From a virus (taxonomy: Duplodnaviria; Heunggongvirae; Uroviricota; Caudoviricetes): a DNA stretch of 4,907 nt. The DNA lies in IMG/VR virus record IMGVR_UViG_2675903606_000017, positions 1 through 4,907 of that record. One strand, 5' to 3'. Made by a program: the position numbers and the translations under genes. The stretch's first letter is position 1. Every line of letters starts with the position of its first letter. Below are positions 343 to 4,907 of the stretch, piece after piece. The notes beneath the pieces were generated by a model. It saw only the letters and a list, made by a program, of their open reading frames with translations. It searched no databases and was not told where the DNA came from.

Positions 343-357
343 TGTAACCAGGTGAAT

Positions 358-371
358 CATTTGATACCGAC
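358..371 (+). repeat. Putative terminal transposase-binding site L1 (CATTTGATACCGAC)
   Basis: TTTGATACCGAC at 360-371 is repeated exactly at 455-466 and as TTTGATACTGC at 507-517. Extended, L1 (358-371, CATTTGATACCGAC) matches the third copy (505-518, CATTTGATACTGCT) at 12 of 14 positions. The three copies start about 16, 111 and 163 bp from the proposed end, similar to the L1/L2/L3 arrangement I recall for Mu attL. Confidence 0.45.
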
Positions 372-452
372 AAGGGTTTTAGTGAAAGGAGGTGAAATCA
401 CCTGTAAGATGCTGAAATAAAACAGGTGATGTATACTTCGGACGGAAAACTC

Positions 453-466
453 TTTTTGATACCGAC
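453..466 (+). repeat. Putative terminal transposase-binding site L2 (TTTTTGATACCGAC)
   Basis: Exact 12-bp repeat of the L1 core (TTTGATACCGAC, 455-466), same orientation. Confidence 0.45.
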
Positions 467-504
467 TGCTCAACAAATAGTCAAAAGATCAAAAAACGGC
501 GACA

Positions 505-518
505 CATTTGATACTGCT
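505..518 (+). repeat. Putative terminal transposase-binding site L3 (CATTTGATACTGCT)
   Basis: 12 of 14 match to the L1 copy at 358-371, same orientation, about 40 bp downstream of L2. Confidence 0.4.
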
Positions 519-698
519 AATTTACCCTTAAAATCTTCTTCAAAACATCTTCAAACTGCCAAAATGCTCACATAATCGATCTAACTATAATCAGTATGAT
601 AATCATCATGAATTACTATTCAATAGCGTGATTATCTTGGGATGAGTCATATGATCTCTATATGTATTTACAGCACCACCTCATGATAGCGATGGCGC

Positions 699-1310
699 TT
701 AACCAACAACATTTTTCTTTACTGTCACTGCCCCTGATTCCTGGGTGGCGTTATTGCTCGAGTTGTACTTCTCAATAACGCGCAAAATCTCTTTGTCTGT
801 TTCTTCACTTCCCGCCATTCCTATCTTTATTGCATTTTTTAGTACGGGACGTAATGGCAAGGCATCAATGATGCTTTCTACCGCATCCTGGCTGATTGTA
901 GATGTATTCATTGCTGCCAGCCTGACAAGGTTGTTAGTACCTTCTCGCCTGATGAATGTAAGGATTAATTGCTTCTCTTGGGGGCTTAGAGAGCTAAGCG
1001 CCTGATCAATACCCGAACCCGAATCGCAATTTTTTTCGATTTTTCCGCATTCATCTTCGTTCTTGCCTGTGGCCAACCATTCGAGTGAACAATTACAGGC
1101 TTTAGCTATTAAGGCCAGTTTATCCAAAGGAGGGAAGTTTTTCCCCTTCCTGTAATTTCTTACTGTGGCTTCAGATAGTCCACAAAGGGTCGCCAGTTCG
1201 ACGTTTGTCATGTTTCCCATAGCCATAGCTAAGCGTTCTGAAAATCGGTTTATTCCTTCCATATCAATAAACCGTTCCGCACTGGATACGGTTTTTTCTG
1301 CCTTATCCAT
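699..1310 (-). CDS. Prophage repressor with an XRE/Cro-CI-type helix-turn-helix (functional analogue of Mu c)
   Basis: 203-aa ORF divergent from ner-A-B, in the position of Mu c. Residues about 30-85 (MTNVELATLCGLSEATVRNYRKGKNFPPLDKLALIAKACNCSLEWLATG) look like a typical XRE-family HTH. Good Shine-Dalgarno on the minus strand (AGGGGG, 4 nt, ATG at 1310). No obvious LexA-like Ser/Lys autocleavage motif. The C-terminal tail (...ESGAVTVKKNVVG) loosely resembles the Mu repressor C-terminus as I recall it. Confidence 0.75.
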   Translation of the reverse strand: MDKAEKTVSSAERFIDMEGINRFSERLAMAMGNMTNVELATLCGLSEATVRNYRKGKNFPPLDKLALIAKACNCSLEWLATGKNEDECGKIEKNCDSGSGIDQALSSLSPQEKQLILTFIRREGTNNLVRLAAMNTSTISQDAVESIIDALPLRPVLKNAIKIGMAGSEETDKEILRVIEKYNSSNNATQESGAVTVKKNVVG

Positions 1311-1466
1311 ATAACCCCCTATAAAACAAAGAAATTATCGGCATCGCATTTAATTTCGATATGCTCGCAAAAAACTGTTGATATCGAATTATTTTGCGAT
1401 TATGATTTACCTAAATCGATAACCGGTTTTGATTATCGGTTCAGGTAAACATGAGAGGATCACACA
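1311..1466. promoter_or_regulatory. Divergent operator/promoter region between repressor and ner; likely also the transposition enhancer equivalent
   Basis: AT-rich 156-bp intergenic region between divergent genes. The pentamer TATCG or its complement CGATA occurs five times (1336-1340, 1357-1361, 1382-1386, 1417-1421, 1434-1438). These include an inverted repeat CGATAA(1417-1422)-N10-TTATCG(1433-1438) centred on the palindrome ACCGGT (1422-1427). The region lies about 970-1120 bp from the proposed left end, comparable to the Mu operator/enhancer position. Confidence 0.5.
1378..1406 (+). promoter_or_regulatory. Candidate early promoter (Pe-like) for ner-A-B: -35 TTGATA (1378-1383), 17-bp spacer, -10 TATGAT (1401-1406)
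   Basis: Near-consensus sigma70 hexamers with the optimal 17-bp spacer, about 60 bp upstream of the ner start. Predicted transcription start near 1413, just upstream of the CGATAA-N10-TTATCG inverted repeat. Confidence 0.5.
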
Positions 1467-1733
1467 ATGAGGGTATCCAGACAAGCATCGAATAATTTGT
1501 TTGTTCGAGAGGGGTGTGACTGGTCTGCTAAAGCGGTATATGCAGCCCTTGAAAACAAAGGCACAGACCTCCCTGAACTGGAAAGGGAGTTAGGATTAAA
1601 AAGCGGATCAATGCGCAATGTGTTTTACCGCCAGTGCCGTAAATACGAAGCCGCCATCGCCGAAAAAATAGGGGTTGAACCTGCTGTAATCTGGCCCAGC
1701 AGATACCAGGTGGACGCCAGAGAAGTGGCTTGA
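1467..1733 (+). CDS. ner: Ner-like DNA-binding protein (Mu Ner / Nlp family)
   Basis: 88-aa ORF immediately upstream of the transposase gene. Residues DW...LS...PEVIWPSRYQ match Mu Ner as recalled (DWHRADVIAGL...ETKPEVIWPSRYQ); this window has DWSAKAVYAAL...GVEPAVIWPSRYQ. Shine-Dalgarno GAGAGGA about 8 nt upstream of the ATG at 1467. The N-terminus is about 10 residues longer than Mu Ner, so the true start could differ. Confidence 0.85.
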   Translation: MRVSRQASNNLFVREGCDWSAKAVYAALENKGTDLPELERELGLKSGSMRNVFYRQCRKYEAAIAEKIGVEPAVIWPSRYQVDAREVA

Positions 1734-1743
1734 TGGGGGATGT

Positions 1744-3834
1744 ATGTGGGTAACAGCAAAAGAATGTGTTGGTCTTCCTGATTTACCAATGATGGAACAT
1801 AACATTCGCCATCGACTCACAAAAGCAGCTGCGGGAAATGCAGCCATGTTACGCAAACGTAAGGGGACAAAAGCAATCGAATTTAATATCGATTGTTTGC
1901 CTTCTGGCGCGCAACAAGTATTGCGTGAACGTTATGCCCTTCAACTGATGACGCAAAAAGCTGATGAATCACCGGCTCCGGTGGTGACAAAGGCCAGACG
2001 CTCATCTGCCGTGGTTGATGCGGTGGAGGCATATCGCGGATCACCACAACTGATGCTCGAACGCCTCAATGCCCTGACTGAAAACCAGCGCCAGGTGGCT
2101 GATGCACGAATCGCGATCGTCAGCGAAGTTCTGAAAGTCGCGCAACAACCTGGTTTCAGCTGTGCGAAGGCTATCCGGTTTATCGTTGACAACCTGGCAC
2201 GTTCGCAACTGGACGAGCGCATTGTGGCAATGGTTGAGACGGCGAACGCCAAAAAGGGAAACAGCCGTGCGTTGAGTGAAATCACGCTGAAACGCTGGAT
2301 TGCAGCCTTTAACAAGGCGCAGAACGCCGCTGAACGCCTGCTTTTGCTGGCACCTGGTAAGCGCCAGGAAATAAAAGCCGAAGATATTAACTGGCTGCCC
2401 GAATTTCTGGCGCAGTATCGCCAGTCAAACGGCCGACCAATGACCGAGGCTTACGAGGATTTTGTCGCTGAATGGCAGCACCGGCACGCTGATGAGCCTT
2501 ATATGCTCGATATCATGCCGTCTTATGACACCATTCGCCGCGCAATGAAGAAACTGCCGGAAGTGGTGAAACAAAAAGGCCGGGTGACCGGCAGTGAATA
2601 CCGCCAGCTTGAGGGATTCACGCGCCGCGACTGGTCCAGAATGCCGGTGAATTATGTCTGGATTGGTGACGGTCACGGCATGAAGCTGAAATGCGCACAC
2701 CCGGTTCACGGTCGGCCATTTGCACCGGAAGTGACCTTTGTTATCGACGGTGGCACGCGCTTTGTGGTGGGCTGGAGCCTTGACCTGGCTGAAAATGTTT
2801 TCGCCGTAGCCGGTGCCATACAGCACGGCATTCGCCATCACGGCAAACCGTTTCTGTATTACTCGGATAACGGCTCCGGGGAAACCGCCGACATCCTGGA
2901 TAAGGAGGTTGTGGGGATACTGCCGCGACTGGGGATTAATCACCCGACCGGGATTGCCGGTAATCCGCAGGGACGAGGCATTATCGAACGGCTTAACCGC
3001 ACATTACCGATGCGCATAGCCCGTAAATACCGCACCTATTTCGGGAAAGGTGCAGATCGCGAGACGTTACGCAAAACCAACCGCGATTTACGCTCGGCAT
3101 TTACTGCCCTGCAACAGGGCAAACGGCTGAACGCCCGGCAGCAGTCAGCGATGCGTGATTTACCGTCCTGGTCTGAACTGATTGATGCCATTCGTGACGG
3201 TGTTGAGTGGTACAACAACCGGCCGCACGATGAATTACCGGTGAAGCCGAACGGCAAGCATTACAGCCCGGCGGAGTTCAGAAAAAAACGCCTGGCGGAA
3301 GAGGACACGGAAATTGAATGGCTGTCCGATGTTGAGCTGCGGGATATGTTCCGGCCGATGGTGGAACGCCCTGTAAGACGCTGTGAAATACGCTGGCTGA
3401 ATAATATTTACTACGCGCCCGAGCTGCGTGACGAGCATGGTCGTAAGGTGCTTATCAGCTATGACATTCATGATGCCGAACGAATTACCGTACGTCGCCT
3501 GGATGGCAGCGTGATTTGCGAGGCGGTATGGGACGGCAATAAACGCGAAGCCTTCCCGATCAGCGCGGAATACCACAAACAGCAGCAGCGCCTTAAAGGC
3601 ATGCGTAAACGCGCAGAGGAAAAAATCCGTGATGCCGAGGATGAGATTGTCAACGTGCTGGAGCACAAGCCACAGGAGCCGTGGCTGGAAAATATATACC
3701 GCCCTGTGGGTAATACGGTGATCGTTCAGCAACCGGTCGCTGACGATGAACCTGATGAAGAATACGAGCGTAATTTCCAGCGGGGATTGCAGCTGCTTGA
3801 AGCGAAATTAAAAGAAAATGACCCTCTGGCCTGA
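1744..3834 (+). CDS. A: MuA-like DDE transposase
   Basis: 696-aa ORF. The N-terminus (WVTAKECVGLPDLP...KGTKAIEFNIDCLP) parallels the Mu A enhancer-binding domain (WVSPKECANLPGLP...KGGKAIEYNANSLP). Candidate catalytic DDE residues sit in VWIGDGHG, YYSDNGSG and GIIERLNRTL. The C-terminus (RPVGNT...DEEYERNFQRGLQLLE) resembles the Mu A C-terminal MuB/ClpX-interaction region. Shine-Dalgarno GGGGGA upstream; the start lies 10 nt after the ner stop. Confidence 0.95.
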   Translation: MWVTAKECVGLPDLPMMEHNIRHRLTKAAAGNAAMLRKRKGTKAIEFNIDCLPSGAQQVLRERYALQLMTQKADESPAPVVTKARRSSAVVDAVEAYRGSPQLMLERLNALTENQRQVADARIAIVSEVLKVAQQPGFSCAKAIRFIVDNLARSQLDERIVAMVETANAKKGNSRALSEITLKRWIAAFNKAQNAAERLLLLAPGKRQEIKAEDINWLPEFLAQYRQSNGRPMTEAYEDFVAEWQHRHADEPYMLDIMPSYDTIRRAMKKLPEVVKQKGRVTGSEYRQLEGFTRRDWSRMPVNYVWIGDGHGMKLKCAHPVHGRPFAPEVTFVIDGGTRFVVGWSLDLAENVFAVAGAIQHGIRHHGKPFLYYSDNGSGETADILDKEVVGILPRLGINHPTGIAGNPQGRGIIERLNRTLPMRIARKYRTYFGKGADRETLRKTNRDLRSAFTALQQGKRLNARQQSAMRDLPSWSELIDAIRDGVEWYNNRPHDELPVKPNGKHYSPAEFRKKRLAEEDTEIEWLSDVELRDMFRPMVERPVRRCEIRWLNNIYYAPELRDEHGRKVLISYDIHDAERITVRRLDGSVICEAVWDGNKREAFPISAEYHKQQQRLKGMRKRAEEKIRDAEDEIVNVLEHKPQEPWLENIYRPVGNTVIVQQPVADDEPDEEYERNFQRGLQLLEAKLKENDPLA

Positions 3835-3841
3835 AATAAAA

Positions 3842-3871
3842 AAATAACCCGAGCGGCGACTCAGGTTATTT
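3842..3871 (+). terminator. Stem-loop between the A and B genes; possible partial terminator, attenuator or RNA-stability element
   Basis: AAATAACCCGAG (3842-3853) pairs with CTCAGGTTATTT (3860-3871) at 11 of 12 positions (one C/A mismatch), with loop CGGCGA. An A-rich run lies 5' and the 3' arm is T-rich, followed by GATT. The GC core is short (CCCGAG/CTCAGG), so termination would be weak at best. Confidence 0.35.
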
Positions 3872-3909
3872 GATTAAACAAAGGAACTACACAAACGCGA
3901 GGTAATAAT

Positions 3910-4827
3910 ATGACCGATATAAACGATGTAATCAAGACCATTGATGAACTTATTGATGGCGGCGTGCTGACGCAGTATGCCATCGCCAGAGAGGCGGGAA
4001 TTTCCGACGGCACATTATCGGCTTTCCGCAAGGGGAAATATAAAGGCGATAACGCCGCTGTGGCTGCTTCCCTGCGCTCCTGGTATGAGAACTGGAATAA
4101 ACAAAGCGCACTGCCGGAACCGCCGCAGTTTGTGGAAACTCAGACAGTCCAGGAGCTGCGCGCACTGTTTCAGGCGGTTCGCCTGATGGGCTGTATTAAC
4201 GTTATTGTGGGCGTACCGGGTGTGGGTAAAACGGCCACTGCCCGTAATTACTGCCAGGAGCAACCAAACACCTGGATGATCACCCTGTCACCCGCGCACT
4301 CCAGCGTCACGGAGTGTCTGCTGGAGCTGGCCGATGCGCTGGGGATTGATTACACCCGCGCGAACAAAGGGGCATTATCCCGCGCCATCCGCCGTCGCCT
4401 GATGGGAACGCGTGGACTGGTGATTGTGGATGAGGCGGATCATCTTGGTATTGACGGTCTGGAGCAACTCCGGGCAATTCAGGACGCCACGGGGATCGGG
4501 ATGGTGCTTATTGGTAACCCGCGCGGATTGTTTAAAGGTGGACGCCGCGCCTTTGATGATTTATCGCGCCTGTTCAGCCGTCTTGCCCGTACAAAACAAC
4601 TTCGCAAGGCCAAAAAGGCGGATGTGCTGGCCATTGCCAGGGCATGGGGTATCAGTGGTGAGGCCGAGCTGGCTGTCATGCAGGCTATCGCTGAAAAGCC
4701 GGGAGCGTTACGCGTTCTGACACATACGCTTAACCAGGCGTGGCTCACCGCCAGCGGTGAAGGCGCGGCGCTGACAGAAAAACATATTAATGCGGCCTTT
4801 GGTAATGCTGCCAACTTACTGATTTAG
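3910..4827 (+). CDS. B: MuB-like AAA+ ATPase (transposition target-DNA activator)
   Basis: 305-aa ORF directly downstream of the transposase gene. Walker A GVPGVGKT and Walker B LVIVDEADHL are present. Strong similarity to Mu B as recalled (PEPPQFVETQTV here versus PEPPRFVETQTV; KPGALRVL versus KPGALRIL). Shine-Dalgarno GAGGT about 8 nt upstream of the ATG. Confidence 0.93.
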   Translation: MTDINDVIKTIDELIDGGVLTQYAIAREAGISDGTLSAFRKGKYKGDNAAVAASLRSWYENWNKQSALPEPPQFVETQTVQELRALFQAVRLMGCINVIVGVPGVGKTATARNYCQEQPNTWMITLSPAHSSVTECLLELADALGIDYTRANKGALSRAIRRRLMGTRGLVIVDEADHLGIDGLEQLRAIQDATGIGMVLIGNPRGLFKGGRRAFDDLSRLFSRLARTKQLRKAKKADVLAIARAWGISGEAELAVMQAIAEKPGALRVLTHTLNQAWLTASGEGAALTEKHINAAFGNAANLLI

Positions 4828-4907
4828 TGTATGATGGTGATTTTAAGGTGCTTGCGTGGCTTCCATTTCCATCAGATGTCCTTCCTGCTCCGCTACTGAA
4901 GGCGTGG

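Follow-up and report, generated by a model that had tools for sequence, protein, structure and literature searches.

Repeats at the left end of an Sp18-type Mu-like prophage as probable L1–L3 sites of its own transposase

Gene content of the locus

The window, by which we mean the whole 4,907-nucleotide stretch of DNA analysed here, opens within the tail-fibre gene of a lambdoid (Stx-phage-type) prophage, which occupies positions 1–342 and is the insertion target of a Mu-like element. Positions 1–345 match Stx-phage records that carry the annotation ‘phage tail fiber protein’, at 97–99.7% identity (99.7% to LC567838); the locus is therefore a prophage-in-prophage insertion. Past the insertion point the intact tail-fibre target reads TGT, which by chance is also how the element begins. 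The tetranucleotide CGGA at 339–342 is the predicted left copy of a 4-bp target-site duplication, and it is followed by the left terminus of the element with its 17-nt terminal segment, TGTAACCAGGTGAATCA (343–359, + strand), where cleavage and joining would take place at position 343.

Beyond the repeats that form the subject of this study, an immunity repressor gene of the CI/HTH_3 type lies on the − strand at 699–1310 (Pfam Phage_CI_repr 1.6e-9, HTH_3 4.4e-9). Its product gave no significant blastp match to Mu c, to which it is unrelated. As the repressor is of the CI type, repressor and transposase do not have a DNA-binding domain in common, unlike those of Mu. Between the repressor gene and ner lies a divergent early control region (1343–1449), which holds two imperfect palindromes, I1 and I2 (ATCGCATTTAATTTCGATAT/ATATCGAATTATTTTGCGAT and TTTACCTAAATCGATAA/TTATCGGTTCAGGTAAA), and a promoter-like site at 1378–1406. 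The palindromes, whose motif is unrelated to TTTGATAC, the motif of the end repeats, are likely operators and possibly also form a transposition enhancer bound by the Iα domain of the transposase. Three genes follow on the + strand: a Ner-like regulator (1467–1733; Pfam HTH_35 1.7e-20; 37.5% identity to Mu Ner), the 696-residue transposase A (1744–3834), a distant collinear homologue of MuA, and a MuB-like AAA+ target-capture ATPase (3910–4800; 48.5% identity to MuB, E 4e-96; Pfam Phage-MuB_C and AAA_22). Judged by the listing of open reading frames and by family scans, this is the gene content of a classic Mu-like phage left end, and in complete copies the phage genome is otherwise Mu-like as well, with mom, com, gam, mor and gpT.

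Gene B is broken near its 3′ end by an IS1-family insertion sequence, whose end (GGTAATGCTGCCAACTTACTGAT...) occupies 4801–4907. In megablast searches the Mu-like matches all stop at position 4800, and positions 4795–4907 have matches in 5000 plasmid records or more, where the annotation is IS1 family transposase. The insertion sits about 40 nt ahead of the normal stop of the MuB-like gene, giving a protein of 305 residues with an IS-derived tail, compared with 310 residues in relatives. Owing to the IS1 in gene B, the copy in the window may be transposition-defective.

Over positions 343–4800 the window is 97–99.8% identical (megablast) to prophages at scattered E. coli sites, including those of O157:H7 strains, and it also matches the ‘inserted Bacteriophage Mu-like phage’ of Stx-phage records. 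Genomes of O157:H7 and other STEC hold these close copies, and the nearest described phages are Sp18 of E. coli O157:H7 Sakai and the Sp18-like phages of STEC, from which the window differs by the IS1 in gene B. Sp18 has been reported as an intact Mu-like prophage of O157 Sakai, packaged and not circularised (PMC2669165). The inserted Mu-like phages of the Stx-phage records have been called Sp18-like, and their insertion into other prophages has been documented (PMC10132054). In the literature searched, no published account was found of the end repeats, termini, 4-bp duplications or transposase-site specificity of Sp18, nor any binding or transposition experiment on the present element.

Direct repeats at the left end

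The initial annotation, made from the sequence by itself, described exact 12-bp direct repeats at 360–371 and 455–466 and a third copy further in, all in one orientation. These are indeed present on the + strand: TTTGATACCGAC occurs exactly at 360–371 and 455–466, the candidate L1 and L2 core repeats, and TTTGATACTG at 507–516 is the conserved part of the candidate L3 core repeat, TTTGATACTGCT (507–518). The extended match at 505–518, which had been given as 12 of 14 positions, came to 11 of 14 when measured against 358–371. The repeat consensus is TTTGATACYR, with an exact core of 8–9 bp, or about 11 bp counting weaker flanking positions; outside this stretch of about 11 bp the information content does not exceed about 1 bit per position. 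The conserved part falls short of a 22-bp bipartite site, and the second half-site that an Iγ-like domain would call for is not evident at the repeats, which weighs against their being sites of a Mu-type transposase.

Within the window the excess of repeat matches is modest, with three matches where 0.6 would be expected, a number attained in 6 of 200 shuffles. In a complete copy of 37,058 bp, the 8-mer core occurs seven times on both strands together, and six of the seven lie within 175 bp of a terminus and point inwards, an end clustering with a binomial P of about 8e-14. Elsewhere in the elements of 37–39 kb there are just one or two further copies of the 8-mer. Alignment of related Mu-like left ends, which the initial annotation had suggested, further sets the repeats apart: in a four-way alignment of left ends of type A, the type to which the window belongs, L2 is a fully conserved island (columns 123–133) amid diverged sequence, and L3 is a conserved island as well (columns 171–182).

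The L1–L2 spacer (372–454) has its first 55 nt or so kept in the E. coli and Salmonella type-A relatives. The spacer also holds a perfect 9-bp inverted repeat, ATCACCTGT/ACAGGTGAT (397–405/422–430), and, at 390–400, a second copy of AGGTGAAATCA, the L1-proximal AGGTGAA(A)TCA. Both are kept in the E. coli type-A copies and not in the Salmonella relatives; the inverted repeat was considered as a functional hairpin (397–430), a reading that was dropped owing to this lack of conservation in Salmonella.

Termini, right end and target-site duplication

In dozens of copies at different chromosomal sites the match to the element starts at window position 343, or rarely at 342 or 339, where the additional letters reflect chance identity with the flank. 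Since independent insertions share the start at 343, the element begins TGTAACCAGG (TGTAACC...), and the left terminus proposed in the initial annotation is correct, all independent insertions beginning there and not elsewhere. With the start fixed at 343, the motifs begin at element positions 18, 113 and 165. They thus have 17, 112 and 164 nt before them, and the distances of about 16, 111 and 163 bp first proposed were close, though slightly short.

The right end of this particular copy lies outside the window, and the evidence on right ends comes from complete copies that are 97–99.8% identical to it (L001, L002, L003, L004 and L006). A search of the other end for the inverted motif had been proposed as a check on the left-end sites, and in these near-identical copies the motif is found there three times, inverted. 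Read inwards, the right end is TATAGCGCGGCGATTTT-TTTGATACCGA-TTTGCATTTCA-TTTGATACCGC-...-TTTGATACTAA, with the 8-mer at 18, 40 and 75 from the right terminus, each copy inverted relative to those of the left end. The three right-end copies share one orientation, which makes R3 a direct repeat, and GTATC was not found on the other strand within 260 bp of the right end. L1 and R1 both lie at position 18 from their own terminus in all types, R1 and R2 are 22 bp apart, and in the relatives a 17-nt segment precedes the first repeat at both ends. One more GATAC occurs at the right end (CCGATACGC, position 62), but it reads GATAA in L004 and is absent from types B and C, and it was therefore rejected as an additional site.

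In type A the right terminus reads ...TATA-3′ (...GCGCTATA-3′), in types B and C ...TTTA-3′ (...GCGCTTTA-3′). At the left, types B and C and the Salmonella elements start with TA, and TG is confined to the type-A left end, as in the window (343–344).

Target-site duplications are 4 bp long in all six clean insertions of relatives, namely GTAC, CGGG, CATC, CGTT, TTAA and TTCA (junctions of L001, L002, L004, L006, L015 and L016), and GenBank record LC727881 independently annotates 4-bp repeats. A reading as 5-bp duplications was rejected, a one-base shift of either boundary failing in every case. Two further elements were left out of the count: L003, whose two flanks carry different genes, a sign of rearrangement, and L005, which has suffered a deletion and is without mom and attR. 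The unrelated flank genes of L003 come with no duplication, and the loss of mom and attR from L005 extends to deletion of the adjacent host genes. These end rearrangements are consistent with transposition-mediated rearrangement of the Mu type.

The transposase

Transposase A and MuA are 22% identical by blastp, collinear over residues 1–686 (E 8e-14), and Pfam places the Mu-transpos_C (1.5e-17) and HTH_Tnp_Mu_1 (3e-5) families in A. When a 20-sequence profile was compared with the PDB, the MuA Iα domain was retrieved (1tns, E 8.5e-5), together with weak matches to IIβ and the core; the Iβ and Iγ domains of MuA were not retrieved by PDB sequence-profile searches. A phmmer search of A against the PDB returned retroviral integrase cores only and MuA was absent, so the homology rests on blastp, Pfam and fold comparison. 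The catalytic core (residues ~360–426, GNPQGRGIIERLNRTL) matches RSV integrase with an E-value of 1.4e-5, a better score than that of the MuA core. A nevertheless retains the MuA-type Iα and IIβ domains despite this rve-like core of retroviral/IS type.

An AlphaFold model of full-length A (pLDDT 49.6) gave meaningless Foldseek matches in the PDB and was discarded. Residues 90–295 were modelled separately (pLDDT 70), and the predicted N-terminal fold of A has MuA Iβ as its best match. Recognition of the repeats probably depends on an Iβ-like segment of A.

Relatives and two classes of end motif

A single-protein search of genome contigs gave two loci, and the diversity described here was taken from E. 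coli genomes and the contigs encoding the relatives. Among elements whose transposase cores are about 90–99% identical, four left-end types with a preserved layout could be distinguished. In type A, which comprises the window and other E. coli copies, the motif is TTTGATAC, at left positions 18/113/165 and right positions 18/40/75. The A-like Salmonella elements L019 and L020 carry the same motif at left positions 18/113/164. Type B, found in E. coli (L011–L013, L015) and in Yersinia vB_YpM_5, an isolated, propagating phage, also has TTTGATAC, at left positions 18/122/164 and right positions 18/40/75. Type C, from E. coli and Shigella (L009, L014, L016) and from Salmonella (L018), has instead the motif TTCAAGATA, at left positions 18/89/141; its right positions, 18/40/75, come from one element, L016, which supplies the only right end of this second motif class. 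The right-end positions were 18/40/75 in every right end examined.

Between TTCAAGATA and TTTGATAC elements the transposase core is 89–99% identical, and the part aligned with Iγ is 85–98% identical (96–100% when types B and C are compared). The segment aligned with Iβ (residues ~96–200; codons at 2029–2343 of the window, + strand) is only about 50% identical between motif classes and 65–100% identical within a class. Scored over 11 elements, the motif class follows this segment only, and not Iα, Iγ or the type of repressor. Thus L014 has a type-B-like Iα (77%) and the class-2 motif, and Salmonella L018/P0095 has a window-like Iα (77%) and a CI-type repressor, yet again the class-2 motif. For three Salmonella elements the motif was predicted beforehand from the class of the protein, and all three were as predicted. 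This co-segregation suggests that the Iβ-like segment is the end-recognition domain, and the exchange of motif class between elements reads, at the level of sequence, as a natural specificity swap.

Two further features of the relatives were observed. The L1–L2 region of type B contains a stretch of about 45 nt, CCGGGAGG..GGGAT.TGATGGGAT, with some 75% identity to the corresponding region of Mu, nt 24–70 (L011:2727–2810; L017:4733–4815). Its likeness to Mu despite the different transposase-binding motif suggests a separate conserved function, perhaps in packaging or in binding a host factor. In several Sp18-type prophages the RefSeq annotation includes an 80-nt ‘tRNA-OTHER’ that lies between the genes for head morphogenesis and virion morphogenesis (L002:19132–19211, L005:18173–18252, L006:22050–22129).

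Comparison with Mu and other transposable phages

Mu is the reference system for DDE transposition and, to our knowledge, detailed data on end recognition come essentially from Mu alone. Its layout was measured on the Mu sequence AF083977. There the left end has CGAAA cores at 22/127/167, so that its 22-bp sites begin at 6/111/151, and the right end has such cores at 22/44, with an inverted R3 that appears as TTTCG at 57. The initial annotation had placed L1 near the end with L2 and L3 roughly 110 and 150 bp in, which agrees with these values. It had also held that the spacing is conserved, and this is so for L1–L3 overall, 145 bp in Mu and 147 bp in the Sp18-type element, but not for the intervals within, L1–L2 being 105 bp in Mu and 95 bp here and L2–L3 40 bp and 52 bp, respectively. 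At the right end the R1–R2 distance is exactly 22 bp in both. As in Mu, each end has three sites, L1 and R1 lie equally far from their termini, the left sites extend over some 170 bp and the right sites are compact, the gene order is repressor, ner, A, B, and the left terminus is 5′-TGTA.

The motif itself, TTTGATACYR, with its 8-bp exact core and two weaker positions, differs from the 22-bp ...RCGAAAR consensus of Mu, as had been noted at the outset. A diverged site specificity had been suggested from this, and it finds further support in a transposase only 22% identical to MuA and in the co-variation of motif class with one N-terminal segment. The companion suggestion, that transpososome geometry has been kept, holds for the layout of the sites and not for other features: R3 is inverted in Mu and direct here, the right terminus is ...CA-3′ in Mu and ...TATA-3′ here, and the target duplication is 5 bp in Mu and 4 bp here; the repressor, being of the CI type, is also unlike that of Mu. 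The site layout is Mu-like with Tn7-like, all-direct repeats, and the stagger and terminal nucleotides are un-Mu-like. In Mu, the target is cut with a 5-bp spacing and both ends carry CA (PMC3562280).

Duplication length and terminal dinucleotides vary among Mu-like phages, as seen in B3, with 6-bp target duplications compared with 4 bp in the Sp18 type, and in the transposable prophages of Leptospira, among which a ‘TG-CA’ group has been set apart from the others (PMC8705779). The same review of transposable prophages mentions duplications of 5 bp and 6 bp only, and it describes the Iα enhancer-binding domain as Mu-specific so far (PMC8705779). Contrary to that description, the domain is present in the A protein of Sp18-type elements.

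Interpretation of the end repeats

We interpret window positions 343–518 as the attL of an Sp18-type Mu-like prophage and the three TTTGATACYR repeats within it as L1–L3 sites for the prophage’s own DDE transposase, A (1744–3834), and give this reading a probability of about 0.86.

An alternative that we consider improbable accepts the repeats as genuine att sites of a Tn7/TnsB-like kind, at which direct, inward-pointing repeats would load a ‘beads-on-a-string’ filament, with neither an inverted R3 nor an enhancer-dependent six-site complex. TnsB has been described on repeated sites (PMC9308760). The shared orientation of all three right-end copies, unlike Mu with its R3, would suit such a filament, as would a catalytic core for which retroviral-type rve integrases give better scores than the MuA core does. 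Tn7 also has a spaced left array and a compact right one, the same disposition as in the Sp18-type element. The defining marks of Tn7, however, are TnsB with TnsA/TnsC, 5-bp duplications and TGT...ACA ends. What is found here is a MuB homologue in place of TnsC, a 4-bp duplication and a phage genome that is otherwise Mu-like, from mom and com to gam, mor and gpT. Tn7 has neither an Iα enhancer-binding domain nor MuB and is not a phage, whereas the Sp18-type element has all three properties. Full-length collinearity of A with MuA and an R1–R2 spacing at the Mu value likewise speak against this alternative.

It is about equally improbable that the repeats bind another protein, be it the repressor, Ner, a packaging (pac) protein or a host factor such as IHF, HU or Fis. 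The thought arises because the repeats are assigned to the transposase by deduction, and because the left end of Mu also carries pac and a spacer bound by HU, while the L1–L2 spacer is partly conserved here. Repressor or Ner binding is at odds with the operator-like palindromes between c and ner, which have an unrelated motif, and pac is a left-end feature, whereas these repeats stand inverted at both ends at equal distance from the terminus. Moreover, motif class tracks the transposase segment and neither repressor type nor Iα, and a host-factor site would not alternate between TTTGATAC and TTCAAGATA inside one host species. Functionless chance recurrence of an AT-rich word in non-coding DNA, for which the modest excess in the window taken by itself would leave room, is effectively refuted by the inward-pointing clusters at the ends of the 37-kb element and by the identical positions of the repeats, as conserved islands, across diverged relatives.

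If the repeats are transposase sites of the Mu type, a course of events can be proposed by analogy with Mu. We infer physical binding, contacts between transposase domains and bases, and assembly of a transpososome. Transposase monomers would dock on L1–L3 through their Iβ/Iγ-like N-terminal region (residues ~96–290), and likewise on the three inverted right-end copies at 18/40/75. The left array of spaced sites would then synapse with the compact right array, in which R1 and R2 are 22 bp apart, to form a transpososome. In this complex L1 and R1 would each place a subunit 17 nt from a terminus; these two subunits are expected to cleave at the ends, and the cleaved ends would be joined, with a 4-bp stagger, to target DNA captured by the MuB-like ATPase.

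Significance

For the window itself the outcome is chiefly a correct annotation of attL. The Sp18-type family to which it belongs occurs widely in E. coli, Shigella, Salmonella and Yersinia, and its members actively insert into prophages, those of Stx phages among them. The rules that emerge may serve to delimit such prophages, which should start with T(G/A)T, have their first repeat at position 18 and be flanked by a 4-bp duplication.

We offer a wider reading tentatively, at somewhat short of even odds. In this reading the Sp18-type phages, including isolated Yersinia phages that are filed under Muvirus, form a distinct transposition lineage within the Mu-like phages, one that has four features jointly. 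Its transposase would combine an rve-like core with a Mu-type Iα domain and join ends with a 4-bp stagger; 3′-TA termini would be accepted; the sites would form all-direct arrays at fixed positions (18/40/75 on the right); and a swappable Iβ-like module of about 100 residues would give rise to two or more natural end specificities that are apparently orthogonal, TTTGATAC and TTCAAGATA among them.

In these elements the end layout of Mu is kept while the motif, the stagger (4 bp) and the terminal dinucleotide (TA) have changed, and the two motif classes track a single protein segment. This provides testable hypotheses on which module of the transposase reads the ends and on what fixes the length of the stagger. 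If the Sp18-type phages do form a distinct lineage, they would constitute a natural domain-swap series for how transposases of the MuA family read their ends, and could supply orthogonal mini-Mu-like tools.
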